64,000 nt of DNA from Candidatus Hydrogenedentota bacterium (GCA_963668025.2 CAXXTH010000010.1:640001-704000); one strand, 5' to 3'. Positions 3,183-20,325 are shown, numbered from the stretch's first letter. The notes: generated by a model from the letters alone, not told the origin. Translations and numbers: made by a program.

Positions 3183-3230
3183 AGGTGGTGGGCGGTACAG
3201 GACTCGAACCTGTGACCCCCTGCGTGTAAG
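3183..3230. repeat. att site: 48-bp direct repeat of the tRNA-Val 3' half (copy at 18173-18220)
   Basis: aggtggtgggcggtacaggactcgaacctgtgaccccctgcgtgtaag is identical at both positions and stops in the anticodon loop. Confidence 0.97.
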
Positions 3231-3330: not shown

Positions 3331-3359
3331 TTGACACATATCGTTACATGGTGTATGCT
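3331..3359 (+). promoter_or_regulatory. Sigma70 promoter of the integrase
   Basis: TTGACA-17 nt-TATGCT upstream of the integrase. Confidence 0.7.
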
Positions 3360-3361
3360 TG

Positions 3362-3387
3362 AAAATGATCCATGAGTGATCCATGGA
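3362..3387. repeat. Putative integrase arm-type sites (TGATCCAT x2); copy at 18082-18107
   Basis: aaaatgatccatgagtgatccatgga vs aaaatgatccataactgatccatgga, 24/26 identical, one inside each end of the element. Confidence 0.75.
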
Positions 3388-3430
3388 TCAGAATGCGGTT
3401 GATCACCGCGAGGCGAGAAAGGAAACAACC

Positions 3431-4855: not shown

Positions 4856-5245
4856 ATGTACAGTAATCGCCATAATCGAAAGGCGGAAAGAGAAGCCGCT
4901 TACGAAGCTATTCCTATGGAATCGACACCCCCCGCCCAATCCCTGTCCGCCGCCAAGCGCCTCCCTCGATACCTAAAAATTGGGCAGGTAGTAGCAGAAT
5001 ACGGCTTGTCTCCGCAGACATGGCGGAGGCTGGCGTTGGCGGGAAACATCACGGCGGTAGAACTCAAAAGCAACGAACGTGGTATATGCGGGAAAACCCA
5101 CTTTGCGTATGATCGCAGTAGCATTGAGGCGTATCTACAAGAAAATATTGTGCGTCCGCCAATACGAATCGATGATCGGCAAGCCGACAGAGAATGGCGT
5201 AAACGCTACGCGGCGGAAAACTACAGGAATGGAGGTAAAGGGTGA
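4856..5245 (+). CDS. Excisionase-like HTH protein
   Basis: YLKIGQVVAEYGLSPQTWRRLALAG...YDRSSIEAYL winged-HTH pattern; GGAG RBS; next to int. Confidence 0.65.
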   Translation: MYSNRHNRKAEREAAYEAIPMESTPPAQSLSAAKRLPRYLKIGQVVAEYGLSPQTWRRLALAGNITAVELKSNERGICGKTHFAYDRSSIEAYLQENIVRPPIRIDDRQADREWRKRYAAENYRNGGKG

Positions 5246-5428
5246 TGGAATTCCAAATCGTAAGGGCGCAACGGAGCCTTTAGGTGAATGCTAAGGCATG
5301 ACCCGGCCATCGTGGCCGGTGAAAGCATAAAGGCCCCTGAGTGGTCGCAACACCCAGAGGCCACGGACGGGTAGGATTGCGGCTCCTACCCGCCCAGAGT
5401 ATAACAGCCGCGTGAAGGAACACGCACC

Positions 5429-5860
5429 ATGAACGCAGAGGCAGAAACCAAGCAGCCCGTAGGGGACCAACGGCCAATCACGGTTCATATCCCATCGCAT
5501 CTTCAAGGACGCCCCATCCATGTTTTCGCAATGGACGAAGGTGAACCAGACACATGGGACGTTATGCCAGACAAGCGCCGCTATGAACAGCAGTGCACGG
5601 CATGCGGAGCGGGCATGTTATTCAATCCCGTCCCGTACGGATTTTGTCCATTTTGCGGCGAGCCGCTAGACATTACTCTCGCAAAAGAGACCACGTGCGA
5701 TGATAATCTGCTTGAGGCCCGGCAGGAAGGTATGCGTGGATGCCTTATGTATATGGGCAACATCATGACGATGTTGAACCAAAGTTTTTATGACAACAAA
5801 CCGGATAGCGATGTAATTGCCGCTCTGCGCGAAGATTTACACAGGGAGTGGGATGTCTAA
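5429..5860 (+). CDS. Zn-ribbon hypothetical protein
   Basis: CTAC...CPFCG motif; AAGGA RBS. Confidence 0.6.
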   Translation: MNAEAETKQPVGDQRPITVHIPSHLQGRPIHVFAMDEGEPDTWDVMPDKRRYEQQCTACGAGMLFNPVPYGFCPFCGEPLDITLAKETTCDDNLLEARQEGMRGCLMYMGNIMTMLNQSFYDNKPDSDVIAALREDLHREWDV

Positions 5861-5968
5861 TTTTTTGGGCAGCGGGCTTGATCACCCGCGCGCGCGTGCG
5901 GGCACTGGCGCTACTCCTTTCGGCCCGGTGTCCGTATGCGGCCCACCTCGAATGGAGGATACCTTCTA

Positions 5969-6178
5969 ATGCCGAATTCATTGGCTTTGGCCGTCCTTGG
6001 TGTCATTTATGCTCACCCTGAGACTTTCGATTACTTCGTGAAGACTGGAAATCTTGTCGTCGAGAAACGAAATCCTGATATGCAGATCGATGTCTTCACA
6101 CTCAACGAAATCCGCCATGTTGCGAAGTGTGTCCGAGAGTACCGCAACAGGACTGCGCAGCCCGGCGTGACCCTCTGA
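5969..6178 (+). CDS. Small hypothetical protein
   Basis: GGAGG RBS; co-oriented in the operon. Confidence 0.5.
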   Translation: MPNSLALAVLGVIYAHPETFDYFVKTGNLVVEKRNPDMQIDVFTLNEIRHVAKCVREYRNRTAQPGVTL

Positions 6179-6192
6179 AAGGAGGTAATGAA

Positions 6193-6399
6193 ATGCGCAA
6201 AGCAAAATCAGCGCCATCTGAAAAGCCTAATAATTACTACGGGCTTAGGGGGCTAAAACTCACCCCACAAAAACGCATACTGGCTAAAATGGCCGTGCAT
6301 GCCGACGAGCTTATGGGTGCATGCACGGACATAAATACGGACACGAAAATTGTACGGCGACACATGAGGGCGCTGAATCGTCTACTGGCCCAAATCTGA
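6193..6399 (+). CDS. Small hypothetical protein
   Basis: Strong AAAGGAGGT RBS. Confidence 0.55.
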   Translation: MRKAKSAPSEKPNNYYGLRGLKLTPQKRILAKMAVHADELMGACTDINTDTKIVRRHMRALNRLLAQI

Positions 6400-6426
6400 C
6401 GGGCTGGCGTGTGCTGGCCCGCTTTT
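6400..6426 (+). terminator. Putative intrinsic terminator
   Basis: cgggctggc-gtgt-gctggcccg hairpin followed by ctttt. Confidence 0.45.
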
Positions 6427-6458
6427 CGTGGCTCTGAATGGTGTAAGGAGCGTATGAC

Positions 6459-6818
6459 ATGAACCAAGAAACCGCCGAACGCGTGAAGTATGGGTATCTA
6501 GTAGTTGCCGCTTTGCTTTTTGCGCTATGGACTATAACTGGTTGTGGAGAAAAACAGTCATTACCGAGTAATGATCCATGGGCAACGCCAGGACCAAAAA
6601 TTATTACTCAACAGGAATATAATCAAATTACGCCAGGCATGGCGAAAAATGAGGTGATCCGTATAATTGGAAGCCCAGGGAAAGTACAGATGAATATCAA
6701 TGATAGTGACGGTGAAATGCTTGTCTTGATCTGGGATAATCCAGATTTAGGCTATGCTTGTGTAAGGTTTCAAAATGGAATAGCGCAAGATAAGAACTGC
6801 ATGGGCTTGGAGTGGTAG
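6459..6818 (+). CDS. Lipoprotein, BLIP/SmpA-like (DUF3862-like) domain
   Basis: Lipobox ITGC; ITQQEYNQITPGMAKNEVIRIIGSPG motif; AT-rich. Confidence 0.7.
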   Translation: MNQETAERVKYGYLVVAALLFALWTITGCGEKQSLPSNDPWATPGPKIITQQEYNQITPGMAKNEVIRIIGSPGKVQMNINDSDGEMLVLIWDNPDLGYACVRFQNGIAQDKNCMGLEW

Positions 6819-7250
6819 GCGTGTGCGGTATCGCATATCCGCAACCAGCTAGGCCGCCGTAACCTGGACGTACCACAACGAGCGGCGCTGGCAGTGCGGC
6901 TGGAAAAGGTGCTCATGAAAGAGGCGCACGTACGTCAAGTATCCGCCTTAAAACAAAACAAAGAAAATCAAGAAAATACCGTTCCCGTCCATGGACGGGA
7001 ACGGAAGGATGTCCGCGAAAACGAAGCATCCGAGCAAGCAGCCAAAGCGTTTGACGTGAGCGGAGCAACAGTACAGCGGGCGAAGAGAGTAGAGAAAAAC
7101 GCCCCGGAGGTATTTCAGGAAATGGCAGACGGAAAAATATCCGTGCGGGCGGCGGAGGGACTGAGCAAGCTCCCGAAAGGCCAGCGCAAGGAGGCGCTGA
7201 AACTAACTACGCCACTTCCTGGACTTTCCGCCACGAACGCACTATACTGA
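6819..7250 (+). pseudogene. 5'-truncated ParB/Spo0J-like phage protein remnant
   Basis: The in-frame sequence upstream of 6894 reads HIRNQLGRRNLDVPQRAALA, followed by HTH AAKAFDVSGATVQRAK and GKISVRAA; no proper start or ParB N-domain. Confidence 0.6.
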
Positions 7251-7370
7251 TACGCAGACTTTAGGGTAGCCGAAAGCCGATTGCAACGGCCCGGCTCACG
7301 GGAACCGCCACCCCGGCAGCACTCCGCTAAGGGTGGCGGTTCCCGGCCCGCAACAATAGGAGTGCGAGTG

Positions 7371-8012
7371 ATGGAAGCCTACCAAATAAGCGAAGCACGC
7401 ATAGCCATTATCCACGAACGCGAGACAGCCATCTTTGAAAGCCTTGACGAAACGCCACGTAGTGCGAATATCGATATTGAAGAGTTGGCGGCATGGCTTG
7501 CGAAAGACGCACTCAACCAGATATCTCGATATGGACGTGGCTTCAATTTTAATGTAGATTTATGGGACGAAATTGAACGCGGGACATTCCAGCCCCTTCA
7601 CTACAAAGATGGCATACCAGTGCTTTGCCGCGCCGATGTACGGCGATTCTGCCGCGCCCATGGGATAAGTATTCCGCCCGTGTTTGTCGAAGATCCTATG
7701 CCACGGGACGAGATTATAAAGGAACTGATCAGGAAGGGATTCAAGCCGGACACAGCAAAACACAGCCATGATAGAGCCCGCGCAAGTGGTATTCTTACGG
7801 ACGATACTCCCGCATCCGAAGTAATGAGGTGGATAGACAGAAAGAACCCTCGAAAATACCAACATACCAAGAAACGCAAATGCGCCAGTTGCGAAGAGCT
7901 GAAACCAATCAGCGAATACAACGGCGACGGCCATACATGTAAGTCCTGCCTAAAATTGCGACCCCGCCCCGCCCAAACGCTGGCCGAAGCCTCCGCACGG
8001 GAGCGTCGTTAA
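7371..8012 (+). CDS. Hypothetical protein with C-terminal Zn finger
   Basis: AGGAG RBS; CASCEELKP...CKSC. Confidence 0.65.
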   Translation: MEAYQISEARIAIIHERETAIFESLDETPRSANIDIEELAAWLAKDALNQISRYGRGFNFNVDLWDEIERGTFQPLHYKDGIPVLCRADVRRFCRAHGISIPPVFVEDPMPRDEIIKELIRKGFKPDTAKHSHDRARASGILTDDTPASEVMRWIDRKNPRKYQHTKKRKCASCEELKPISEYNGDGHTCKSCLKLRPRPAQTLAEASARERR

Positions 8013-8214
8013 TACCCGCCATTTCCCGAATCTGCACCTTGCATATCACTGAATAGCGCAGGGACAAAAAGGGGACATTTAAGTTTTTTATCCTAACAAA
8101 CCCTAATAAATATCGCAAAACACACCGTTTTTATTGGACATTCGCGTACCCCTTCAATATCCGTGGTAACATAATTACAGAAGTTGAAACACGGAATAAC
8201 ACAGGAGCAACGCG

Positions 8215-8466
8215 ATGACAAAAAAAATTCACGGACTTAGCCCAGAAGTGCGGCGCGAGGTTTGTATGCTCTCATTGCAAGACCTCGCGAAGGTTCTGCA
8301 TAGAAGCTATGGATATCTCCGCCGTCGTGTAATGGAAGGCCCACTCCCCGGGCGAATGCCCCTACCGCAATACACAAAAATCGGCAACCGCATTCTATTC
8401 AGACTTGAAGACGTTCAGGAATATATCAACGAACACATAGTGCATCAGCACGTGGTGGGCGAATAA
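8215..8466 (+). CDS. AlpA-like HTH regulator
   Basis: MLSLQDLAKVLHRSYGYLRR...LPQYTKIGNRILFRLEDVQEYI; directly upstream of the replication genes. Confidence 0.75.
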   Translation: MTKKIHGLSPEVRREVCMLSLQDLAKVLHRSYGYLRRRVMEGPLPGRMPLPQYTKIGNRILFRLEDVQEYINEHIVHQHVVGE

Positions 8467-8469
8467 TAC

Positions 8470-8850
8470 ATGACTGAGCCCATCGACATTAACCGTGCCC
8501 GCCGACGGAAACGCCCTGGCCCAGCGGATTCAATGGAATTCCGCCGTTCCGAGTTATGTACGGAGTACAGCGGTTCGCGCGTGTTTGCAAATAAGTGCGG
8601 CTCGTTTGTGCGGTTCGTGAAAGGCCTCGGGTGGCTCCGTTGGACTGGAACGCATTGGGAAGAAGATCCCGAACGCGTGCGGTGTATGTGCATCGAGGTT
8701 GTTGGTCAATATTTCCGCGATACAGCCGGACAGTACGCGCGTGATGGCGATGACGCAGATTTAATCAAGCATATATTGGCATTTGCCAGAAAGTGCGAAA
8801 GCGCCAGTACTGTTGATGCAATATTGCGCATCTGTGAGGGGTATCTTTAA
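8470..8850 (+). CDS. D5_N-like fragment of a P4-family primase/helicase
   Basis: VRFVKGLGWLRWTGTHWEED motif; TAATG overlap with the next ORF. Confidence 0.7.
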   Translation: MTEPIDINRARRRKRPGPADSMEFRRSELCTEYSGSRVFANKCGSFVRFVKGLGWLRWTGTHWEEDPERVRCMCIEVVGQYFRDTAGQYARDGDDADLIKHILAFARKCESASTVDAILRICEGYL

Positions 8851-9893
8851 TGAAGATTGACGAATTTGATAGCCACCCATTTCTTGTAAATTTTAAAAAT
8901 TGCACGCTCGACTTCGAGCAGATGCAGGGTGAACTTCCAAAAGTAAAGCAGCACTGCCAGTCGGACTATCTGACTAAGTGCTTACCTTACGATTACAATG
9001 AAGGCGCACCGGCGCACCTTTGGGAGAGCGTCATCGAGCACGCCATACCAAACCCAGCCACACGTCGATTTCTTCAAAAAAGTCTCGGTTACTCCGTGCT
9101 CGGCACCTGCCGCGAGCAGTGCGCGTTCATAGCTTATGGGCCACCCGCGACTTGCAAGAGCACCGTTTTCGGAACCGTACTTCGTCTTCTGGGCCCATAC
9201 GGATCTAGATGCGCCACCCAGGCGCTATTAGAAAAGCCCGTGAATGGCGGAGCGTCACCCGACATTGCAGATCAGCGAGGCGTCCGGTTTCTCCTTGCAA
9301 GTGAAACGCCGGAAAATGGGCGATTAAATGAATCTCTGTTTAAAGAGCTCACTGGCCAGGACCGTATACGAGCGCGTCCGCTGTATAAACAAAGTATTGA
9401 ATTCGAGGCCACCGGGAAGTTGTGGATTTTGACCAACCATAAACCCGTAATCCGCGACACCACCGGAGCAGTATGGAGACGTATACGGCTTATCCCATTC
9501 GATGTTGTTATCCCAAAAAAAGAACGGGATAAAACCTTACCGGACCGGCTCTCGCGAGAATCAGAAGGTATTCTCCGTTGGCTCGTTGAAGGGGCGTGTA
9601 TGTATATGAAAGAAGGACTTGAACCTCCTGAGCAAGTCGAAGTTGAAACGGACAAATACCGCGAACAGCAAGACACGATTGGGCGCTTTATATCCGAATG
9701 CACGATCCAAGAGCAATACAAGCAGGTGTCGAAAACAGCGCTTTACGAGGAATACGAGAGATGGTCGCGTGACAGTGGGGAATATGCCGTGAACAAAAAA
9801 AAGTTCGGCGAGTACCTGTTTGAGCATGGGTTTGATGATTACAAGGGCACTGCCGGAAAGCGCTTCTGGCTAAACATAGGATTGATGGCATGA
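8850..9893 (+). CDS. P4/D5-family SF3 helicase, ATPase part
   Basis: PFLVNFKNCTLD, YGPPATCKST (Walker A variant), FKELTGQDRIRARPLY, TNHKP, WRRIRLIPF. Confidence 0.9.
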   Translation: MKIDEFDSHPFLVNFKNCTLDFEQMQGELPKVKQHCQSDYLTKCLPYDYNEGAPAHLWESVIEHAIPNPATRRFLQKSLGYSVLGTCREQCAFIAYGPPATCKSTVFGTVLRLLGPYGSRCATQALLEKPVNGGASPDIADQRGVRFLLASETPENGRLNESLFKELTGQDRIRARPLYKQSIEFEATGKLWILTNHKPVIRDTTGAVWRRIRLIPFDVVIPKKERDKTLPDRLSRESEGILRWLVEGACMYMKEGLEPPEQVEVETDKYREQQDTIGRFISECTIQEQYKQVSKTALYEEYERWSRDSGEYAVNKKKFGEYLFEHGFDDYKGTAGKRFWLNIGLMA

Positions 9894-9993
9894 GTGGCGG
9901 GAGAGGCGCGTGTTTACATAACTTTCTATATAAATTCCCTTCGCGTAAGGAACTTTATAAAACACGTGCCACTTATGCCACCTTCGCCACTCA
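9885..9993. other. Putative replication origin (inverted iteron arrays around an AT-rich core)
   Basis: 3x (a/g)(t/a)ggc(a/g) at 9-nt spacing, AT-rich centre, 3x (t/c)gccac at 9-nt spacing; cgtgttt/aaacacg inverted pair. Confidence 0.6.
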
Positions 9994-10017
9994 CAACCAA
10001 AAAAAAGGAAACTTACC

Positions 10018-10572
10018 ATGTGCAACGATTACCCAGTTCTATACGGTACCCCATACCGCGACCTAAACAACCATTCCATGATTGAGGTCTGGTGTCCCAC
10101 CTGCCGCGATATGCACCATCACGGATGGCCCGCCGATGCCAAACCCGGCCACCGGGAGCATCGGGCACCGCATTGCCTATCACGTCCCCGTGGTCTTGGC
10201 CAGCCATTCGAGAGCCCGAATCTAGACGGGTATTACATCATGGACGCCCAGGATGCCCCACAGGTTCCCATGGATGCACCGCCGCCCGTGGTGGAAGGGA
10301 GATTATTCAAGCAATGTGGCGAGCTCCGTGTGATGGTGACCGGCTGCCCATTTTGTGGCGGTTCGCATGTACACGGATGGAATCGGCCACAGACGGTATC
10401 GCAGCGGACCTCACATTGCAAATTGCCGAACCGGATTAAAGGCATGATCCACCGGTGGGGCGAATACGAAATCCATCTCAAGAGATCCACCACAGATCCA
10501 CAGCCCCATACGGAGCCAGCACCCAAATCTCTAACCCATTCATCCGCAACGATTTCCGAAGCGGATTTTTAA
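10018..10572 (+). CDS. Hypothetical protein with two CPxC-x3-HxHGW metal-binding repeats
   Basis: WCPTCRDMHHHGW...HC and GCPFCGGSHVHGW...HC. Confidence 0.65.
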   Translation: MCNDYPVLYGTPYRDLNNHSMIEVWCPTCRDMHHHGWPADAKPGHREHRAPHCLSRPRGLGQPFESPNLDGYYIMDAQDAPQVPMDAPPPVVEGRLFKQCGELRVMVTGCPFCGGSHVHGWNRPQTVSQRTSHCKLPNRIKGMIHRWGEYEIHLKRSTTDPQPHTEPAPKSLTHSSATISEADF

Positions 10573-10614
10573 CGTAACCCATTGGTTAGGAACCAAATTT
10601 AAGGAGAAAAACGC

Positions 10615-10902
10615 ATGCATCCACGAATTATCCACAGGAGAACCAAAGACGCCCTTGACGCCCTTAACGCCGCGCTCGGGCAGATCTGTGCCGCGCTCGG
10701 CATTGAGCCCGCGCCGGTTGAGACGGCCAAACCGATGACATTGGCTATGCAGCCCGAATTACGGGAAATGTTCTTCACCGAGGCTGCCGCTATCACCGCC
10801 CAGGCGGCTGCATTGACTCTGGCGCGCCCCGTGGTGGCCAAGGCCGATGAACCAACACCAATGAAAGGAAAAGCCGTCAATGGCCAAAAAACCACATCCT
10901 GA
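10615..10902 (+). CDS. Hypothetical protein
   Basis: AAGGAG RBS; first gene of the coupled late operon. Confidence 0.6.
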   Translation: MHPRIIHRRTKDALDALNAALGQICAALGIEPAPVETAKPMTLAMQPELREMFFTEAAAITAQAAALTLARPVVAKADEPTPMKGKAVNGQKTTS

Positions 10903-11185
10903 TATCACCTCGCTTCGGATGTATATGCGGGCGCATCGAGGGCTTCACGAAGCCGCTGAAATCGTCCTAGACGAGGTGGAGGCCATCGCGCCCCAGGAGA
11001 TCGCCCGTAGCGCGGCGCGCATTCGCCGGGCGCTTACCAGGCTGGCAACCGCCACATTCAGTGAGGCCGTCCGCGGTGCCCAGCGGTGCCCAGCGGGCAA
11101 TCGTGAGGCAAAAGCAGTCTTGGCGGTTGACGGCTTCAAATGGATTGAGCACCGCCGTGGAAATAAATCCCGAGGTGGCGCATGA
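10880..11185 (+). CDS. Hypothetical protein
   Basis: ATGA overlap with terS. Confidence 0.55.
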   Translation: MAKKPHPDITSLRMYMRAHRGLHEAAEIVLDEVEAIAPQEIARSAARIRRALTRLATATFSEAVRGAQRCPAGNREAKAVLAVDGFKWIEHRRGNKSRGGA

Positions 11186-11757
11186 GACGACTGACCGCCA
11201 AGCAAACTGCATTTGTGCAGCACTACTCCATCACCGGCAACGCCACCCAATCCGCCAAGATGGCAGGCTATTCCGGCTCCACCGGCACGCTCAGCGTAAC
11301 CGGCGCGGAGAACCTAAGAAAGCCTAGTATTCAAGAGGCGCTCAGGTCGTTAACCGCACCACTCACGGACAAATTGAATACCAACAGAGCGGCGCGCGTG
11401 GCGTATTTGAGCGCTGTAATGCGAGGCGAAGTGGCCGAAGACGATGGCGCTATTCCCGCCGTTGCCGTCCGCGTGAGGGCTTGCGAAATTCTGGCCCGCA
11501 TCGAGGGTGACATGGTCACTCGCATCGAGGCGACGGTCCAGCGTGCGCCCGATCCGCAGTTCGACCTATCGAAGCTCACACGCGATCAAGTGGTGCTTGT
11601 GGAGTGCCTGCAAACCCGGGCATTGGTGAATCCTGATGAGCATAGTCGCTATCAGATGGCAATGCTACAAGAGGAATTCGACAGATGGCCGGATGAACGG
11701 AAGTTGGCTATTTTTGTGAAGAAACCCGAAATCGGCGAAACTACGAAGGAGAATTGA
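11182..11757 (+). CDS. terS: Terminase small subunit
   Basis: LTAKQTAFVQHY..GNATQSAKMAGYS...GAENLRKPSIQEAL; YLSAVMRGE. Confidence 0.9.
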   Translation: MRRLTAKQTAFVQHYSITGNATQSAKMAGYSGSTGTLSVTGAENLRKPSIQEALRSLTAPLTDKLNTNRAARVAYLSAVMRGEVAEDDGAIPAVAVRVRACEILARIEGDMVTRIEATVQRAPDPQFDLSKLTRDQVVLVECLQTRALVNPDEHSRYQMAMLQEEFDRWPDERKLAIFVKKPEIGETTKEN

Positions 11758-12296
11758 TGATGGCTTATGATGAAAATGGAACACGAATTGATCTACCACC
11801 GGTACAGATGCCGCGTTTCGTGAATGATACCGCCCGGCTTGTGGATGAACAGGCCGAAAAAGCGGGTGTGGCGCTTCACCCTATTCAAAGAATGCGCATC
11901 GTTGAAGATGTTCACGCCTATTGCCAGCAGAAAATCGATCATGGGCGCGCGCCTAGCCCGCAAGAATTCCACGACGCCATTCGTCGCGAAATTTGGCAAC
12001 TGACCCCGGTTGGCCGCAACGTGACGGAAGGCATAAAGCAGCGGCAAGCCGCCGCCGCCCAGGTCGCGGCCAAGCAAGCCGCCGATGCCGCCGCGAAGGC
12101 TGCCGCCGGGATTGAAAACGAAAAACAGGCGTTCCTTGCCAGTGCCCGGCGGGTATGGCCCGGTACTGATACGGATTTTGCCCAGAAAGCTGATGCACTT
12201 TGGGCTGACGAATGCGAGCGCCGCTGTGTCGCGCAGATGACCGGCGCGCAGGCCTGCCCCGCTGGCATACGCCGTGCTTACAAGGGGGCAATCTGA
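11757..12296 (+). CDS. Hypothetical protein
   Basis: TGATG coupling with terS; Ala-rich helical segment. Confidence 0.65.
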   Translation: MMAYDENGTRIDLPPVQMPRFVNDTARLVDEQAEKAGVALHPIQRMRIVEDVHAYCQQKIDHGRAPSPQEFHDAIRREIWQLTPVGRNVTEGIKQRQAAAAQVAAKQAADAAAKAAAGIENEKQAFLASARRVWPGTDTDFAQKADALWADECERRCVAQMTGAQACPAGIRRAYKGAI

Positions 12297-12676
12297 TGAA
12301 ACCTCTCGATTTTGATGATAAAATGTGGCGTGTTATACGTCAAGACGTATGTGGGATCCTTGATGCTGACGCGGCAACCTTGTTTGGGTGTCGGCGCAAA
12401 GACATTTGGAAAGTTGTAACTGAGTATCCTGACCTTTTTGGGCCAGACATGTGTATCCGCCTCTCTGATAAAGAGCGCATCGTAATGGCCAAACAGGTCG
12501 GAATACGTCCGAAAGACACCATGCTTTTTTTCGTTGGCCACGGTGCCATTTATTGCGCACCATATATCGAAACCAAACGCGCACAGACCATCTACCGCAC
12601 CCTTGTGGAGCACTTCACAATTACCGGTATCGCTGAACTAACCGCCCGGCTGGCCGAAGCAACGAAAGGGGTATAA
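12296..12676 (+). CDS. ORF6N (KilA-N-like) domain protein, divergent
   Basis: ILDADAATLFGCRRKDIWKVVTEYPDLFGPDMCIRLSDKE...FFVGHG...ETKRA follows the ORF6N pattern; TGATG coupling. Confidence 0.6.
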   Translation: MKPLDFDDKMWRVIRQDVCGILDADAATLFGCRRKDIWKVVTEYPDLFGPDMCIRLSDKERIVMAKQVGIRPKDTMLFFVGHGAIYCAPYIETKRAQTIYRTLVEHFTITGIAELTARLAEATKGV

Positions 12677-12679
12677 CGC

Positions 12680-15484
12680 ATGGAACTTGGAACCTTAGCC
12701 ATTCGTTTTCAGTCTGACGGCCTAATCCAACTCAATAACGACATGTCGAATCTCCGCACGCAGGCAAATGCGAACTTCGGAGAGATCACCCGTACCGTGG
12801 GCGCAGGCATGACGGCGGCGGGTGCGGCCATCACCGGCGCGCTCGGGCTGTCTGCGAAGGCCGCCAGCGACTTTGGTGCTGGCTTGGCCAATCTTGGTAC
12901 GCTTGGCGTAACGAACCTGGATGAAATGGGTGAAGCTGTCCTGGATTACTCGGTCGCTATGGGGCAGGACGCATGCCAAGCAAACGAAAATCTATATCAA
13001 CTCGTTTCGCGCGACGTTCCAAAAGATAATTTGATCGATGTTCTGACCGCATCCGCTAAAGGCGCGGCAGTAGGCGTAGGCACAGTGAACGACTCGCTTG
13101 TGCTGGGCACTTCAGTATTAAACAACTACTCCCGGGACATGGTAAAAGGCGCGAATTACACAGAAAAGTTTGAGCAAGTCATGGGAATCGCGGCGTCTGC
13201 CATTCAAACAGGCGCTACCACGATGGGAGAGTTGGGCACCACGATTGGGCGGGTGGCCCCTATCGCGTCTAAGGCGGGCATATCCCTGGAAGACCTATTC
13301 GCATCGGTTGCGACGATTACATCCACAGGTACACAGACTAGCGAGGCGGTGTCCGGGCTGAAGGCCGCGATCTCGAACATCATATCTCCGACCAGTGAGG
13401 CCACAAAGGTTAGCGAGGCGCTTGGGCTTCAATTTGATGCGGCGGCCATCAAGTCTAAGGGATGGTCGGGATTCCTGCAAGAGCTGCAAACCAAGGTCAC
13501 TGAGGGCGTACCGAAACTCGGGCAGTATAAAGCGCAATTGCAGCAACAGGCCCAACAGATGGGGCTTACCGCCGAAAAGACCAAGGAATTGCGCACTCAA
13601 TTCAAGTCGCTTGAGGGCGTCTCAAATGACTCGCTCACGGTATTTGCCAACCTATTCCCCAGCGTTGAGGCCTTAAACGCAGCGCTTGCGCTCACGTCTG
13701 AAAGCGGGGCCAAGAAGATGGTTGCCGCTCAGAAGGACATGGCAAACGGCATGGAATTACTGAACGACCGCTACGGTGAGTGGGCAAAGAATAATCCCGA
13801 GCTTGCGTTCAAGCAGTTGAAGGCGGCCACGGCGGCGCTGGCGATTTCCGTTGGGCAGCTATTACTACCGGCGCTCACGAAGATAGTGAATGTCGTCCGG
13901 CCAGTGGTGAATGCGTTCCGAACATTCACGGACCACACAGGGGCGGCGGGCACAGCTATTGTATCGTTTATTGGTGGTGTCGGGTTACTCGGTTTTGCGT
14001 TTGGGCCAGTGATTTATTCCGCAACGAGCCTCGTTAGCGCCCTACGTCTTATTGCGCATCCGTCGCTGATACTGTCGCTGGGGCAAGCCGCCACCGGCGT
14101 GAAATCCATCGGCGTAGCAGCCACGGCGGCGCGTATTCCGATGCTCGCAATGGGCGGCAGCTTGACTGCAACAGCGGCGACCGCAGGCGCGCTTGCAATC
14201 GCCATAGGGGCGGCTGGAACATTTATCGCTGCCGATATCGTGATGTTCAAGAAGTGGCGCGATGCAGTTGAGCAGCGCAAAGAATCAGAGCAAAAACTTC
14301 AGGACAAGATCATTGAGCGCGCCAAGCAGCTCGAGGCCCAGGGCGTGTATATCGATTGGGCAGCCATGAAGGAAATGACCGCCGATCAGCAAGTCATGTA
14401 TATGAACGACCAGAAGGCAGCACAAGAAAAGCAACAATTCCAAGACTGGATGACACGCACTAACCAGAAAGCACTCACCGAAGAACAAGACGCCCAGCGC
14501 CACAACATCCAGCTAAACTGGAACCTAACCAGCGAAGAGGCCTACAACGCCTCACTGTCTGACGCTGACGCCGCCACGAAACTGAAGCTAGTCCAGGCCG
14601 ATGAAACGCACACGCAGCTTATCCTTGAACAACTCGGTATCCGCACAGCCGAAAGCCGCACACAGTTAAGCGAGCAAGCGCAGGCCGCCATTGCGGCTGC
14701 CGAACAGCAGAAGGCGGCAACTGAGACGGTGCTACAGTCACTTGACAAAAACATAGGCGCGATTACAGAACTCGGAACCGTTGCAGAGGCCACCGGAGAC
14801 GCCACGAAGACCGCCACGGAAACTATGAAGGACGGCTTCCAGGAAGCATCCAAAGATGTTCCGAAATACTGCAAGATCATCACGAGCGACAAAGACGGCA
14901 TCGTGATTATCAAGAAGTCATCCGCAGACCTGCGAGAAGAGATCGGCAACGTGCCCGGCGCTATGCGCAACGGCATGAGTGAGGCGGCGAAATACGTAAG
15001 CCAGTATTGCGCAGATATGAACGCCAGTATCCAAGAGGTGATCGACAAACTCAACTCCATAGACCCGTCCGTGCGGCATTCGCCCTCCATAAACGACCGT
15101 ATCGAGGTGGGCTTATCCCAGATGGGCGGCCTATTCAATTCCGCCTTGGACGGGATCACCTCGAAGTTCGCGAGTTCACGGAACACCATGGCCAGCCTGG
15201 CGGCGTCACTATCCGCCATGATGGGCAGCATAGGCTCTACGGGCTACACGGTGCGCAACGGCGACGTGGTGAAATCATCCAGCGCTACAGGCACAACGAC
15301 CGCCCCGGGTGCCGAAGCCCCGATATCGCCCGTTGGCAACACAAACCCTATCGGCATATACCCACCACAGGTGACCGTGAACATCAATCACCCGGTGCTG
15401 CATAAGGACGCGGATATCAACGTGTTGTTATCGAAGATGGGGCAGATGCTCCGCGCGCAGAAACTCGCTAAAGGGGTGGGGTGA
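12680..15484 (+). CDS. Phage tail tape measure protein (TP901-family core)
   Basis: 934 aa; GATTMGELGTTIGRVAPIASKAGISLEDL, SEAVSGLKAAISNIISPT, hydrophobic central helices, RHSPS motif. Confidence 0.9.
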   Translation: MELGTLAIRFQSDGLIQLNNDMSNLRTQANANFGEITRTVGAGMTAAGAAITGALGLSAKAASDFGAGLANLGTLGVTNLDEMGEAVLDYSVAMGQDACQANENLYQLVSRDVPKDNLIDVLTASAKGAAVGVGTVNDSLVLGTSVLNNYSRDMVKGANYTEKFEQVMGIAASAIQTGATTMGELGTTIGRVAPIASKAGISLEDLFASVATITSTGTQTSEAVSGLKAAISNIISPTSEATKVSEALGLQFDAAAIKSKGWSGFLQELQTKVTEGVPKLGQYKAQLQQQAQQMGLTAEKTKELRTQFKSLEGVSNDSLTVFANLFPSVEALNAALALTSESGAKKMVAAQKDMANGMELLNDRYGEWAKNNPELAFKQLKAATAALAISVGQLLLPALTKIVNVVRPVVNAFRTFTDHTGAAGTAIVSFIGGVGLLGFAFGPVIYSATSLVSALRLIAHPSLILSLGQAATGVKSIGVAATAARIPMLAMGGSLTATAATAGALAIAIGAAGTFIAADIVMFKKWRDAVEQRKESEQKLQDKIIERAKQLEAQGVYIDWAAMKEMTADQQVMYMNDQKAAQEKQQFQDWMTRTNQKALTEEQDAQRHNIQLNWNLTSEEAYNASLSDADAATKLKLVQADETHTQLILEQLGIRTAESRTQLSEQAQAAIAAAEQQKAATETVLQSLDKNIGAITELGTVAEATGDATKTATETMKDGFQEASKDVPKYCKIITSDKDGIVIIKKSSADLREEIGNVPGAMRNGMSEAAKYVSQYCADMNASIQEVIDKLNSIDPSVRHSPSINDRIEVGLSQMGGLFNSALDGITSKFASSRNTMASLAASLSAMMGSIGSTGYTVRNGDVVKSSSATGTTTAPGAEAPISPVGNTNPIGIYPPQVTVNINHPVLHKDADINVLLSKMGQMLRAQKLAKGVG

Positions 15485-15905
15485 TGGCGGATAATGCGTG
15501 GATCGAGTGGAACGGCGATGAATGTCTGATTCGGATCAAAAACGCCACCAAAGACAGCATCAAAAAGATCGCGCTGGCCGTCGAAGCACAGGCCAAGGCG
15601 AATATTGAGGAGCCGTTCCTGCATAAGCAAGGCCGTAAGCGCCGCGATGGCCGCGACGCACACGGGCGGTTTTTGGGTAGAGGCGCAAGTGACGAATCCG
15701 ATCTCATGCGCAGCCAGATCGACACGGGGGCGATGATCAATTCCACACGCGCCGTGTTTGACGGCTTGCCTTCCGGCGCAATGGCTGCCGTTATATCACC
15801 CCAGGAATACGCCCCGTACCAAGAAGCTATCCGCCCGTTCCTTATGCCCGCCGTTGATGAGGTCGTTTCAGATAAAGCGGAAGGGATCATTAAGAACCAG
15901 TTTAA
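15484..15905 (+). CDS. HK97 gp10-like tail/neck protein; last 6 codons displaced by IS1380
   Basis: IDTGAMINS, EYAPYQE, RPFLMPA motifs; removing the IS restores ...KNQFKADGID* (stop 17618-17620); present frame runs to 16119. Confidence 0.75.
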
Positions 15906-17596
15906 CCTAAAAAAGGCAGTAGGAACTTGCTTTGGGATTTTTCCAGCCCAATTTTGTAAAGAAATAACTGTCCTGTCCCGCTCTTTACGTTGGCGCCGGC
16001 AGCAGGTTGGGGGTGGCCAGCGGCCTTCCCTCGAGTATTTTGGCGAAGATCCGGCTGAGGATCGTCCGCCATCGTTCGTTCCAGTTCAACTGCCGCGCAG
16101 TTGCTTTCATCTCCAATAAAAAGGCGTTTACGGATTTCAGAACTTGTTCCATAGCATGTCCTTGCGCATGCACGGGGGTGATGGTGAGCGTGGTTTGGCC
16201 TCCGTGGCGGGTCTGCTGTCCCACGCCGTAGAGCAGCAGAGGGCGGCTCGTGATCGCTTCGGCGTGGCGCTCCGGAATCGCCAAGCGCACGTACAAAGAC
16301 CACCAATTGTAAATCAGGGCTATGATTCGCGCCATGATTTGGCAGCGCTTCATATCGTGGGTGGTATACCCGCCCCACCCCCACTGGTTTTTCTGTTCAT
16401 CGTAGATGTTTTCCGCATCGCCCCGGTCGCGATAATGCTGGGCCAAGGCCGATAGGGGGTCTGTCAGCGAAGTGGCCAGCAGCGCGTATTCATACTGCTG
16501 CACGGCTCCCGCTTGGATCTCGATGAGCTGTAGTTGGGGGGAGGGGTCAGGCAATAGCGGCTCCGTTTCCAGAACGATACTCCCTTTGAGCTTGCGCCGC
16601 AGAACGATTACCCGGCGTTTGCTCGTCCATCCCATAAGCTCCAGACGGTCTTCCAAACCTTCCCAGCCTTGGCCTGCTGGCGTCCAGTCCTTAGAACAAA
16701 AGGCCTGCTGGATAAGCCGTTTCACGTTGCTGGTCTGCCGCAATTTGAACAGATAGGGCACTCCGCGCGCTTCGGCTTCGCTCATGTCGCGTTCGTTGCC
16801 GAAGGCGCAGTCGCCGCGAATCATGCCCGGCCAGGCCGCGCGCGGCAAGCCATCGAGAAAATGCCACAATCCAGGCATGGTGTATTTCGCCGCCGTCTCG
16901 TTGCCCGGCCGGACTTCCACGTCCAGCACCAAGCGCGTGTTCGCCATAAAATAGGTATGCAGCACATGAGAAGGACGGCCCTGTTTCGCCGGATTGTAGC
17001 CCAGCACGGCCCCTTCTTGATGGCCGAACAGGGGCTTCACGCTTGTATCCACGTCCAAAATCCAAGGCTCATAAAGCAACGGCTCATAACAGCGGCGCAG
17101 GTGCTTCTGTAGCCAGCCCGCGCAGGCTTCCCCGTCCGCCAGTATAAATGCCCGCCGCGCCGAGGAGGCGCTCATGATCTTGCTCATACCCAGCAAGCCC
17201 GGGTTCACCGCGTCGTAACGGACCGCGTCAATGTGCGCATAGCGGGTGTGGCCCGCCAGCACTGATAAAAATAGCGTGCCCAGCACATCCCTCTTGCGCG
17301 GCGCATTATTGCTGGCGTACGCCAGCGGACAGTCCTCCACCCACGCTTCAAAAAGCTCCGCCGTCTTGAGGAAATCGATAAAGAACGCCAACTGGCCAAA
17401 CGGCGTCGTTGCCGCCTCCCGGTCCCATTCCACATGCACCCGGCCCCCGTAGCTATCTACGAAAATCGGCGCCTCCAAAGACAACCATTCCTCCTCTCCC
17501 AATGGGGGAGCATCTTGCTGTTGCGATTCTGTTTCCATGTTCTTTATCTTGAACTACTTCCTGCTCGACACTCAAGATTCAACTGGCGTTTTTAGG
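15906..17596 (-). mobile_element. IS1380-family insertion sequence
   Basis: Imperfect TIRs CCTAAAAAAGGCAGT / CCTAAAAACGCCAGT; 5-bp TSD TTTAA (15901-15905, 17597-17601); 1691 bp. Confidence 0.92.
15985..17538 (-). CDS. IS1380-family DDE transposase
   Basis: ILDVDTSVK...GHQEGAVLGYNP, IRGDCAFG, YRDRGDAENIYDEQKNQWG. Confidence 0.92.
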   Translation of the reverse strand: METESQQQDAPPLGEEEWLSLEAPIFVDSYGGRVHVEWDREAATTPFGQLAFFIDFLKTAELFEAWVEDCPLAYASNNAPRKRDVLGTLFLSVLAGHTRYAHIDAVRYDAVNPGLLGMSKIMSASSARRAFILADGEACAGWLQKHLRRCYEPLLYEPWILDVDTSVKPLFGHQEGAVLGYNPAKQGRPSHVLHTYFMANTRLVLDVEVRPGNETAAKYTMPGLWHFLDGLPRAAWPGMIRGDCAFGNERDMSEAEARGVPYLFKLRQTSNVKRLIQQAFCSKDWTPAGQGWEGLEDRLELMGWTSKRRVIVLRRKLKGSIVLETEPLLPDPSPQLQLIEIQAGAVQQYEYALLATSLTDPLSALAQHYRDRGDAENIYDEQKNQWGWGGYTTHDMKRCQIMARIIALIYNWWSLYVRLAIPERHAEAITSRPLLLYGVGQQTRHGGQTTLTITPVHAQGHAMEQVLKSVNAFLLEMKATARQLNWNERWRTILSRIFAKILEGRPLATPNLLPAPT

Positions 17597-17659
17597 TTTA
17601 AAGCGGACGGCATAGATTAGCCCGACACCCGGGCGGCCCGTGATGCTACCCGGTTTTAT

Positions 17660-17700
17660 GCCCCCAGCGGTTCGCCCCCAGTGGGCCGCTGGGGGCTTTT
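17660..17700 (+). terminator. Intrinsic terminator ending the satellite late operon
   Basis: gcccccagcggttc...gggccgctgggggc followed by tttt. Confidence 0.75.
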
Positions 17701-18121
17701 GGTGTTTTCTAGGGGATATCCGCCGCACACTTGATCCACTATTGGGTTTATTTTCGGGCTGAATCGAACGGGTCTAAGTGATTAAATATAAACACGTTAC
17801 GTGCATTTTACGCCCTAATCCCGAACGCCTCGGCGGCAATCCGAGATGGGAATGTAGACTTTGGTGCAAGGTTGCACTAAGGTGCCATTGCCACAGTGAA
17901 GCTGGCGGCGCTGTACGCACCGGCGGCGCGGGAGAGGATGGAGGCGACGCAAGCCAATCCAGGCGAAAAAGTAGGAGCTAAGGCTGCTGCAACCTTGCAG
18001 CAACGGATTGACCCCAAAGAAATAACCTATCACTTCGCCCCCCTCACTGGTGAGTAGAATCCACACACCAGGATTCCTTTCAAAATGATCCATAACTGAT
18101 CCATGGAAGAATTTTAACGAT

Positions 18122-18162
18122 AAAAGGCCTCAAGGAACGACTTTTGTAAGTCCTTGAGGCCT
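18122..18162 (-). terminator. Element-supplied hairpin/terminator downstream of tRNA-Val
   Basis: 12-bp perfect stem aggcctcaagga/tccttgaggcct with a short T tract on the minus strand. Confidence 0.6.
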
Positions 18163-18175
18163 AGCGCTTTAAAGG

Positions 18176-18252
18176 TGGTGGGCGGTACAGGACTCGAACC
18201 TGTGACCCCCTGCGTGTAAGGCAGGTGCTCTAACCAACTGAGCTAACCGCCC
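18176..18252 (-). tRNA. tRNA-Val(TAC)
   Basis: GGGCGGTTAGCTCAGTTGGTTAGAGCACCTGCCTTACACGCAGGGGGTCACAGGTTCGAGTCCTGTACCGCCCACCA; cloverleaf, TTCGA loop, encoded CCA. Confidence 0.97.
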
Positions 18253-18303
18253 ATCTGTTTCCTGGCTTTCGTCATCGCTTCGTGATGGGGACTCAGCGGA
18301 GAT

Positions 18304-18332
18304 ATTATGCATGTATGGGCCTAGCACTTCAA
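18304..18332 (-). promoter_or_regulatory. Sigma70 promoter for tRNA-Val
   Basis: TTGAAG-17 nt-CATAAT on the minus strand. Confidence 0.6.
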
Positions 18333-18357
18333 TAGTAAGTTTTTCAGGTATGAAACA

Positions 18358-19803
18358 TTAGAATGGCACATCCTCATCATCGTAGCCAGCGGGAGGAACG
18401 TCATCGGAATCAGTGGCATGGGCGGCGGAGGGAGCAGCGCCTGCCCTGGCGATGGTCTTAAACCGCTGGATGGGGCGGTCAAACAGCAGATCGAATTTGC
18501 CCGTGGGACCGTTTCGTTGTTTGGCGATGTTGACACGGATCAAATTCTCATTGCCCTCGGTTTCGTGCGCGGGCGGGCGCGCGAGCATGATAACCACGTC
18601 GGCGTCTTGTTCGATGGCGCCTGATTCGCGCAAATGGAAGAGCTTAGGCATGCCGGTGTCGTCTTTTTCGGCTTCGCGGCTGAGCTGGGAAAGGGTGATG
18701 ACGGGCACGCGCAGTTCGCGGGCGATCCCCTTGATCGAGCGGCTGATTTCGGCGATTTCGATCTGGCGGCTTTCGGAACGGCCTGGCGCGCTCATAAGCT
18801 GGAGGTAGTCAATGATGATCACATCCACGTCGTGCTGGGCCTTATGCCGCCGGGCTTTTGACTTCAAATCGAGCACGCTGATATTGGGGGTGTCATCGAT
18901 ATAGAGTTTTGCCTGGCTCAGTGTGTCGGCGGCCCGCTGGAGTTTGGTGAATTCGGCGGACGCAAGGAAGCCCGTGCGGAAGCGGCTCGAATCGATTTTG
19001 CCTTCCATGCACAGCAGGCGTTGGGTGAGCTGTTCTTTCGACATTTCTAGGCTGAAGAGAAGCGAGGATTTGTGCTCCTGCACCGCCACATGCGACGCCA
19101 CATTCAAGGCGAATGCCGTTTTACCCACGGACGGCCGGGCCGCCAGCACAATCATGTCGGACGGCTGGAGCCCCGATAGCATTTCATCCAAGTCTTGGAA
19201 TCCCGTGGGCAATCCCGTGATGCCCGAGTGGGATTTCATCATTTCCTCGATGCGGTGAATGCTGGCTTCGAGGAGGTCGCCCACGCGGGAGATGGGATTG
19301 AGCTGGCGCTTTTCGGCGATGGAGAAAATGCCGGATTCGGCCCTGTCGAGCAAGGTGCTCGTGTCTTCGGGGACCGTGTAGGCTTCGTTGGCGATGTTCG
19401 TGCAGGTCGAGATGACTTTGCGCAGCACCGCCATGTCCAGGACGATTCGGGCGTAATATTCCACATTCGCGGAAGTGGGAACAGCGCCCATGAGCCCGGC
19501 GATAAAGCTTGTGCCGCCGATTTCCTCCAGCCCGCCGCCACGCGAGAGCTGGTCGCTGACGGTAGTGGCGTCCACGGGCGCTGAATTCTGAAACAGCGCA
19601 ACCGCCGCATCATAGACGCGGCGATGCGCTGGCACATAAAAAATGTCTTCACTATCACCGCCGAGGATCTCTATAGCCACGCCGACGGCGTCGTTATTGA
19701 TCAGCATCGCCCCTAGCACCGACCGCTCCGCATCAATGTTCTGAGGCGGGGTGCGGTCGAAGACGGCCTGGGGCTGAGGCTGCGGCTTAGGCTGCCTGGC
19801 CAA
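18358..19803 (-). CDS. dnaB: Replicative DNA helicase
   Basis: PPQNIDAERSVLG, AARPSVGKT, IIDYLQLM, LRESGAIEQDAD. Confidence 0.97.
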   Translation of the reverse strand: MARQPKPQPQPQAVFDRTPPQNIDAERSVLGAMLINNDAVGVAIEILGGDSEDIFYVPAHRRVYDAAVALFQNSAPVDATTVSDQLSRGGGLEEIGGTSFIAGLMGAVPTSANVEYYARIVLDMAVLRKVISTCTNIANEAYTVPEDTSTLLDRAESGIFSIAEKRQLNPISRVGDLLEASIHRIEEMMKSHSGITGLPTGFQDLDEMLSGLQPSDMIVLAARPSVGKTAFALNVASHVAVQEHKSSLLFSLEMSKEQLTQRLLCMEGKIDSSRFRTGFLASAEFTKLQRAADTLSQAKLYIDDTPNISVLDLKSKARRHKAQHDVDVIIIDYLQLMSAPGRSESRQIEIAEISRSIKGIARELRVPVITLSQLSREAEKDDTGMPKLFHLRESGAIEQDADVVIMLARPPAHETEGNENLIRVNIAKQRNGPTGKFDLLFDRPIQRFKTIARAGAAPSAAHATDSDDVPPAGYDDEDVPF

Positions 19804-20325
19804 TTACTCGGAATCCTCGTCCTCGTCTTCGTAGACCGCGTTGACCGGTTCCTCATCTTCTTCCACGGGAACCTCGACGGGCTGCTCGGAGGCGACCCAC
19901 ACCTTGATATGGGCTTCGACGCCGCTTCCCAGTTTCACGCTGACCGTGAAGATGCCGAGGTTTTTGATGGGCTCTTCGAGCTTGATGCTCTTGCGGTCCA
20001 CTTCATACCCTTTGGCTTTGAGCTGTTCGGCGATCATGGCCGATGTGATGGAGCCGAAGAGTTTTTCGTCTTCACCGGCGCGGGCCTTGAATTCGAGCGT
20101 CAGCTCTTCCATGGTCTTGGCCACTTCCTGGAGCTTGGCGCGCACTTTTTCTTCGCGGCGCTTGATCTGGCGCACTTCGTGTTCGACTTGCTTGGCGCTC
20201 GCCGAATCCAGGCTCACGGCCATCTTGCGCGGAATCAGGTAATTGCGCGCGTAGCCGTCGGCCACTTTCACGGTCTGGCCCATGTCGCCCAGACTCGCCA
20301 CGTGTTCGCATAAAATCACTTTCAC
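19804..20325 (-). CDS. rplI: 50S ribosomal protein L9
   Basis: VKVADGYARNYLIP, KLFGSIT. Confidence 0.97.
   Translation of the reverse strand: MKVILCEHVASLGDMGQTVKVADGYARNYLIPRKMAVSLDSASAKQVEHEVRQIKRREEKVRAKLQEVAKTMEELTLEFKARAGEDEKLFGSITSAMIAEQLKAKGYEVDRKSIKLEEPIKNLGIFTVSVKLGSGVEAHIKVWVASEQPVEVPVEEDEEPVNAVYEDEDEDSE

Follow-up and report, generated by a model that had tools for sequence, protein, structure and literature searches.

An operon of seven genes at positions 10615-15905 was analysed in a window of 64,000 nucleotides from the genome of a Candidatus Hydrogenedentota bacterium (GCA_963668025.2 CAXXTH010000010.1:640001-704000; the window is the whole stretch of DNA studied, and all positions are counted from its first nucleotide). 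The operon lies in an integrative island and, in the reading that we hold with moderate confidence, is the morphogenesis module of a phage satellite resembling the phage-inducible chromosomal islands (PICIs), supplying a matched pair of a tail tape measure protein (TMP) and a tail completion protein (TCP) for chimeric tails. A second copy of the island (copy 2) is present in the same genome (L013; G000:C10:1040001-1060000, positions 5131-20000), inserted in another tRNA gene with a similar 3' end. The genes and the terminator of the operon are listed below, the gp10-like gene in the two parts that lie on either side of an insertion sequence (IS).

10615-10902, + strand: orfA, 95 aa, without a family in the libraries scanned
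10880-11185, + strand: orfB, 101 aa, an orphan gene with a 23-nt overlap with orfA
11182-11757, + strand: terS, terminase small subunit (PF03592, phrog_51), ATGA overlap with orfB
11757-12296, + strand: orfD, 179 aa, an orphan gene with an all-helical model, TGATG join to terS
12296-12676, + strand: orfE, 126 aa, probably a divergent ORF6N/KilA-N-type protein, TGATG join to orfD
12680-15484, + strand: TMP gene, 934 aa (PF10145, TIGR01760), 3-nt gap after orfE
15484-15905, + strand: gp10-like gene (putative tail completion/Neck1 protein), from codon 1 to the second base of codon 141, TGATG join with a one-base overlap with the TMP gene
17602-17620, + strand: remainder of the gp10-like gene beyond the IS, beginning with the last base of codon 141 (last six codons and stop)
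17660-17696, + strand: intrinsic terminator, 16-pair stem with 12 G-C pairs and a T run, 40 nt past the natural gp10-like stop

The initial annotation of this stretch, made by a model, had described the seven same-strand genes as coupled either by overlap or across a 3-nt gap and free of gene fragments at the joins, and both statements agree with a direct reading of all six joins, at which no fragments were found. The ribosome-binding sites that it reported are present as clear Shine-Dalgarno-like purine runs at six of the seven starts, the run before orfB being weak. Its single terminator at 17660 was also recovered, as the strongest of 25 terminator-like sites between 3000 and 18400 (a total not above the chance expectation of 19.2 +/- 4.0); upstream on the + strand (6421-17660) the candidates have 5-7 pairs only, and the terminator is 97% identical in copy 2. 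The gene end placed at 15905 had to be revised, since this position is the edge of the IS and the TAA found there (15903-15905) lies in another reading frame.

From 8215 onward all genes point the same way, separated by no more than 124 nt, and no sigma-70-like promoter was found directly upstream of orfA. A codon-usage score that had 25 long open reading frames (ORFs) of the window as its training set ranked the annotated frame first of six in all ten genes scored, including orfA, orfB, orfD, and orfE, the margin being narrow for orfB.

Identity, origin and selection of the operon genes

The assignment of terS to the terminase small subunits (TerS), made by profile matching, is solid. The protein matches PF03592 (Terminase_2) with an E-value of 1.5e-15 and 58.5 bits (cut-off 26.1) over profile positions 1-81 of 141, and phrog_51 at 1.3e-20, and 183 phage records match it by tblastn; it comprises the N-terminal DNA-binding part of Terminase_2 and a divergent C-terminal half. 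Relatives were found neither in IMG/VR nor in four related phage records, and a comparison with 133 representative genomes of the bacterial order gave weak N-terminal matches only, in four other genomes.

Equally solid is the prediction that the TMP is a tape measure protein of full length and not a fragment, with matches to PF10145 (E 1.1e-24, 87.8 bits, cut-off 33.2) and TIGR01760 (E 1.3e-19, 70.5 bits, cut-off 28.8). Its nearest relatives (P0002-P0004; P0002 has 979 aa and 13 member sequences and lies on a 15.4-kb contig) share 35% identity over 90-99% of the length, the alignment with relatives shows conservation at both termini, and residues 3-932 could be aligned in the viral contig L035. 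The identity of the best segment was 48% in L035, 45% in L036 and L037, 42% in L038, and 36% in L039 (L016 represents the L037 phage in another collection). An alignment search with the TMP matched eight loci with identities not above 33%, and the protein had no match when searched against the genome contigs. The C-terminal half (about residues 480-934) had no match among deposited phage genomes, and scans with Pfam and NCBIfam found no lytic or enzymatic domain in the protein.

The label gp10 that the last gene had been given holds in part. All five members of the gp10-like family match phrog_5, "tail completion or Neck1 protein" (best E 1.8e-05, ranging to 5e-4), HK97 gp10 matches the same region of this profile at 3.4e-35, and gene order in related phages points in the same direction, but the E-values are weak and the family had no match in Pfam at E-values up to 1. 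When the protein was compared with HK97 gp10 alone using hhalign, only an RPFxxPA stretch was aligned, with a probability of 1.2%; the family profile found nothing among PDB sequences (best E 0.91), the protein had no match among deposited phages, and its AlphaFold2 model, built from a five-row alignment, had a pLDDT of 52.6. Placement in the HK97 gp10/tail completion family (TCP), by one PHROG family together with synteny, is weak but consistent. Except for the end separated by the IS the gene is of full length, and its phage homologues in L035, L036, L037, and L039 are 38-48% identical. In both genomic copies the protein carries a 23-residue Arg/Lys-rich insertion (15610-15700, about residues 52-76) after a PF.HK.G motif, in the region after the first helix; the four phage homologues lack this insertion, as does, it seems, a metagenome variant (X5, described below).

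In all five contigs that hold a gp10-like gene (L035, L036, L037, L039, and G107) it is found upstream of the TMP gene, about 2.7 kb away in the related phages and between the head-completion genes and the terminator and major tail genes; no homologue was detected in L038. In these phages it is followed by a terminator-position gene (141-181 aa), the major tail gene, a chaperone-position gene (199-267 aa), a small ORF, the TMP gene, and Dit, the major tail protein belonging to phrog_10909 in three of three contigs scanned, and HK97 has likewise the order gp10, terminator, major tail, chaperone, TMP. In the island the gp10-like gene stands directly downstream of the TMP gene, and deletion alone therefore cannot explain the order; a rearrangement is needed. 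G107 belongs to the bacterial family of the present genome and is, besides the latter, the only one of the 133 in which the gp10-like family was found. Its prophage (L126/L127; G107:C455, C580) is split over two contig ends and encodes, in this order, a gp10-like protein, a 146-aa protein, a protein of major-tail size (284 aa), a 212-aa protein, and a TMP. The island TMP and TCP stem from the siphovirus lineage represented by the viral contigs and this same-family prophage, and the lineage of the latter is a possible relative of the helper.

Copy 2 retains orfD, orfE, the TMP gene, and the gp10-like gene with the same junctions and with an intact gp10-like gene of 147 aa. The ratio of nonsynonymous to synonymous substitution rates (dN/dS) was calculated by the Nei-Gojobori method between the two island copies only, with the following results.

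int: dN/dS 0.19
terS (part): dN/dS 0.33
orfD: dN/dS 0.44
orfE: dN/dS 0.24 (45% amino acid identity, dS saturated)
TMP gene: dN/dS 0.19
gp10-like gene: dN/dS 0.19

All reading frames are intact across segments with nucleotide identities as low as 49-85%. Along the module the identity between the copies forms a patchwork of 49-100%, and the copies have therefore exchanged sequence, mutually and with other variants. A stretch of 1.35 kb in the TMP gene (14113-15462) is 100% identical between them with flanks at 63-91%, which suggests recent gene conversion between the copies. A third variant (X5) was found in a wastewater metagenome of another study, the contigs of which are about 90% identical, span the orfE/TMP junction (12429-12708), and run from the gp10-like gene into the terminator region with no IS in between. 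The earlier proposal of a selected module rather than a random deletion is supported by the complete TMP, by a gp10-like gene complete but for the IS, by a gene order that requires rearrangement, and by the retention of the module in copy 2 with dN/dS values of 0.19-0.44 in six genes.

The remaining ORFs have few or no relatives. A single distant relative of orfA (P0088, 41% identity, E 3.9e-04) was found among 1.84 billion representatives, whereas among 5.8 billion clusters orfB retrieved only itself and orfD only its two genomic copies. orfD was found in none of the 132 other genomes of the order, none of the four related phage records, and not in IMG/VR, and it had no usable match in the Atlas. 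Neither orfA, orfB, nor orfD matched anything in NCBIfam or PADLOC, and tblastn searches with orfA, orfB, terS, orfD, and orfE against 99 TMP-bearing loci returned nothing at E-values up to 1e-3.

The three family-less ORFs had been put forward as candidate tail-assembly chaperones or helper-interference factors, and neither role gained support: orfA and orfB match no family and are both missing from copy 2. orfD followed by orfE does stand directly upstream of the TMP gene, which is the chaperone position. A comparison of orfD with the chaperone-position proteins of three related phages by hhalign nevertheless gave a probability of 0.13%, and the structure search on its model (all helical, including a 49-residue helix; pLDDT 79.4) yielded no match above noise: Foldseek against BFVD gave no match at E-values up to 0.001 (best E 0.058), and a wide search in VIA gave none at Z of 8 or more, the best Z of 7.6 being within noise for helical models, with no tail chaperone among the best 50 VIA rows. 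A -1 frameshift fusion of orfD and orfE, similar to gpG/gpGT, was ruled out, since no X_XXY_YYZ heptamer is present although orfE is in the -1 frame.

For orfE the label ORF6N was weakly borne out. The match to PF10543 (ORF6N) stays below the cut-off (17.2 bits versus 27.8, E 0.0066), but PADLOC PDC-S05 is matched at 4.3e-05 (4.8e-05 for the copy-2 allele) and the language-model neighbours in the Atlas are ORF6N clusters (score 0.92, 168 shared features). The protein probably contains a divergent ORF6N/KilA-N-type DNA-binding domain. Its gene has its own Shine-Dalgarno-like run and a conserved ATG, and the frame upstream of this ATG is not conserved between the copies.

The island and its likeness to known satellites

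The island measures 15,038 bp (15.0 kb), or 13.3 kb after removal of the IS. Apart from the operon the following features were located.

3183-3230, strand not assigned: attL, 48-bp direct repeat corresponding to the 3' part of tRNA-Val, 100% identical to 18173-18220
3383-4708, + strand: predicted tyrosine integrase with arm-binding domain (PF00589 1.5e-30, PF13356 7.1e-15, phrog_1 2.3e-60)
4856-5245, + strand: AlpA/excisionase-like helix-turn-helix (HTH) protein (phrog_66 2.6e-08; HTH_17 4.3e-04, below the curated cut-off)
8215-8466, + strand: second AlpA-type HTH_17 protein (PF12728 1.3e-07, 32.2 bits, cut-off 27)
8470-9893, + strand: D5_N and D5/P4-alpha-type helicase in two ORFs (PF08706 over both ORFs; phrog_1156 1.2e-89)
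10018-10572, + strand: 184-aa protein with two CPxC...H.HGW motifs, without a family in any library scanned
18173-18220, - strand: attR, inside the intact tRNA-Val gene at 18176-18252

The predicted backbone of integrase, AlpA, and D5 helicase is that of a satellite of the P4/PICI type and not that of a prophage, and none of the 20 island ORFs scanned matched capsid, portal, large terminase (TerL), tail tube, baseplate, or lysis families. The two helicase ORFs meet at TAATG (8848-8852), the first covering D5_N profile positions 3-78 and the second positions 85-141, which could reflect either a disabling frameshift or a helicase made in two translationally coupled pieces. Neither these ORFs nor the region upstream of them yielded a primase domain, and a search of plasmids with the helicase DNA returned no match. 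Without the IS the island has about one third of the length of the related phage G134 (44.9 kb, 98% complete), and a size ratio of about one third is classical for small-capsid satellites such as SaPI1 with 80alpha and P4 with P2.

PICIs of the SaPI type and of Gram-negative bacteria consist of an integrase, AlpA or Stl, a primase-replicase, and TerS or Rpp on about 10-15 kb, and classical PICIs are not known to carry tail structural genes. The island resembles them in its IS-free size, its tRNA site, the integrase at one end, the AlpA-type HTH proteins, the D5/P4-alpha-type helicase, and TerS, and both are without capsid, portal, TerL, and lysis genes. It differs from the classical members by its TMP and TCP, by the split helicase in which no primase domain was found, and by having no recognisable cpm or ppi homologue.

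Satellites that bear a TMP are already in print. The PICI-like elements (PLEs) of Vibrio cholerae are described as encoding their own TMP and a chaperone (TAC), in many cases with a baseplate hub (BhuB) as well, giving chimeric tails with parts of ICP1, and tmp genes are reported from other putative satellites as well (Mathur, Boyd et al., Nature 2026; PMC12987554). Like PLE11, PLE1, and PLE4 as presented there, the island is an integrative satellite with its own TMP in an operon with small satellite genes and without tail tube or baseplate genes. The PLEs combine the TMP with TAC, with or without the hub, and have a myovirus helper, whereas the island combines TMP and TCP of a siphovirus source lineage; no TAC or hub was recognised in it by family scans and hhalign. 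The two TMPs have no sequence relationship, that of the island being of the TP901/PF10145 type. The island further carries TerS besides the TMP, unlike the PLEs as far as that account describes them, and the PLE tails were demonstrated, whereas the island is known from its genes alone.

A second precedent is given by the EPIPs of Mycolicibacterium aichiense, which encode a TMP besides TerS and neck proteins and whose tails exceed those of the helper in length, the TMP being the proposed cause (bioRxiv, December 2025; PMC12822802). The island shares with them the combination of a small satellite with TerS, TMP, and one or more neck-region proteins. EPIPs as characterised in that preprint have a serine integrase, a head-to-tail adaptor and stopper, scaffold and capsid genes, an actinobacterial host, and isolated particles, whereas the island has a predicted tyrosine integrase, a neck protein of the gp10/TCP type, and no head genes that could be found.

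The structural model for a TMP-TCP contact is the neck of 80alpha/SaPI1, inside which a single TCP (gp51) is reported to form a five-strand sheet from its beta-hairpin and the N-terminal strands of three TMP chains, to cap the DNA end, and to contact the head-tail connector, gp51 being equated by the authors with HK97 gp10, lambda gpZ, and SPP1 gp16.1 (Kizziah et al., PMC11661146). The island TCP is similar to gp51 in its phrog_5 family and in the neck position of its gene in related phages; it differs by the basic insertion noted above, and both TCP and TMP are encoded by the satellite, whereas those of 80alpha/SaPI1 come from the helper. The supposed TCP of T5 is placed at the tail tip (PMC11784142), and the family may not be uniform.

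Satellites were long assumed to leave the tails of their helpers unaltered, and tail manipulation was shown only in 2025-26, for the cholera-phage PLEs. The island differs from that case in its distant bacterial lineage, its siphovirus source, and the TCP that takes the place of chaperone and hub as partner, and taken together with the 80alpha neck structure it offers a testable idea of which contacts a satellite brings along when it swaps the tail core. It adds to the evidence for widespread carriage of TMPs by satellites and bears on the interpretation of "cryptic prophages" and on the prediction of phage-satellite conflict.

Competing readings of the operon

Under the satellite reading, infection by a helper siphovirus would allow the island TerS to direct the helper TerL to island DNA, and the island TMP and TCP would replace the helper's own pair in a tail otherwise built of helper parts. 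A foreign TMP would need a fitting TCP because the TCP docks on the TMP N-termini in the 80alpha neck, and the rearrangement of the island genes has made the two genes adjacent and translationally coupled. For orfE a role as DNA-binding regulator or antirepressor is probable; orfD may, from its position, serve as a chaperone of the tail or in setting capsid size, and orfA and orfB may interfere with packaging or assembly of the helper. An extension that we regard as rather unlikely holds that TMP and TCP form a "tail-lumen cartridge", a selectivity device that would join satellite-type tails to satellite-filled heads; if true, it would explain how satellite TMPs are, in the words of the PLE study, "selectively incorporated ... 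through an unknown mechanism" (PMC12987554).

Several observations weigh against the satellite reading. The present genome (93.75% complete) contains no helper genes, in that no other PF10145 TMP, no PF05065 capsid protein, and no PF03354/PF03237 TerL was found, and any helper would therefore have to come from outside. The TCP match is weak (E 1e-5 to 5e-4, with no Pfam match and a model of low pLDDT, 52.6), the last six gp10-like codons are cut off by the IS in this copy, the D5_N domain is divided between two ORFs, and orfD occurs in this genome only among the 133 representative genomes. Copy 2 is damaged, with a terS that lacks about 32 codons at the 5' end and with no replication gene found, and the dN/dS values come from two copies with exchanged sequence, which are not independent replicates. 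Both copies being damaged by IS elements, present mobility is doubtful.

Some of these points would also be expected if the island were a decaying prophage remnant or mosaic in which terS, TMP, and the gp10-like gene were kept by chance or through recent origin, without a satellite cycle. IS elements in both copies, the 22 near-identical copies of one IS in the genome, the split helicase gene, the missing helper, and the lack of relatives among the 133 genomes of the order all fit such a remnant, but deletion alone cannot yield the gene order, the six tight junctions are free of gene fragments, the six genes have dN/dS values of 0.19-0.44 with frames intact at 49-85% identity, the att repeats are precise and identical, a third variant exists in an independent metagenome, and the backbone is of the P4/PICI type in place of a phage replication and lysis set. 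We consider a remnant improbable. A similarly low probability is given to a role of TMP and TCP mainly in interference or immunity, by which they would poison the tail assembly of the helper in a dominant-negative manner or escape a tail-targeting defence of the island itself. In the latter case one small ORF would be the blocker and the island TMP would be resistant, in parallel to PLE11, for which an 80-aa protein of no recognisable family, Rta, is reported to block the ICP1 TMP while the PLE TMP is resistant (PMC12987554); phage JBD26 Tab is likewise reported to halt tail assembly via the TMP (PMC10884400). orfA (95 aa) and orfB (101 aa) are small and family-less and stand in the same operon, but PADLOC found no match for them or for orfD, and copy 2 keeps TMP and TCP yet lacks orfA and orfB. 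Interference overlaps with the satellite reading, and both are compatible. It is very improbable that the TMP-like protein works outside the virion as a membrane- or cell-wall-active effector with the gp10-like protein as an unrelated small partner: the unmatched TMP residues (about 480-934) and the weak gp10 assignment would allow it, whereas metagenomic phage TMPs can be aligned from end to end and share the conserved C-terminus, the scans gave no lytic or enzymatic domain, and the gp10-like homologues (38-48%) occupy the neck position in siphovirus structural modules.

Insertion sequences and minor features

The element that interrupts the gp10-like gene was delimited as follows.

15906-17595, - strand: IS of 1.7 kb with a DDE transposase gene (15985-17538); GTTTAA duplicated at 15900-15905 and 17596-17601

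Its ends are imperfect inverted repeats, and it is inserted six codons before the natural gp10-like stop (TAG at 17618-17620; ...QFKADGID). The gp10-like frame now continues into the IS to 16119, whereas the sequence of copy 2 runs through the insertion point without a break. The transposase belongs to DDE_Tnp_1_4, and the 22 near-full-length copies in the genome (this one included, with 99-100% identity, besides three partial copies) indicate a recent burst.

In the early region of the island the small proteins include a lipoprotein and a ParB-HTH-like protein. The predicted lipoprotein (6459-6818, 119 aa) has a weak BamE/SmpA-like match (E 1e-04, just under the cut-off) and is a candidate surface or exclusion factor. 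The motif pair of the 184-aa protein encoded between the helicase gene and orfA resembles a zinc-ribbon-like duplication. Just inside both island ends a 29-nt repeat (90% identical) with two ATGATCCAT-like units was found at 3359-3387 and 18079-18107, one copy overlapping the integrase start; these repeats are candidate arm-type integrase binding sites.

Copy 2 contains three transposase genes of other IS families (8634-10013, - strand; 10633-12360, + strand; 17334-18716, - strand) and a full-length ORF6N protein (6693-7331, PF10543 6e-32) that adjoins the integrase, and it is flanked by a gene for the methanol-cobalamin methyltransferase MtaB.

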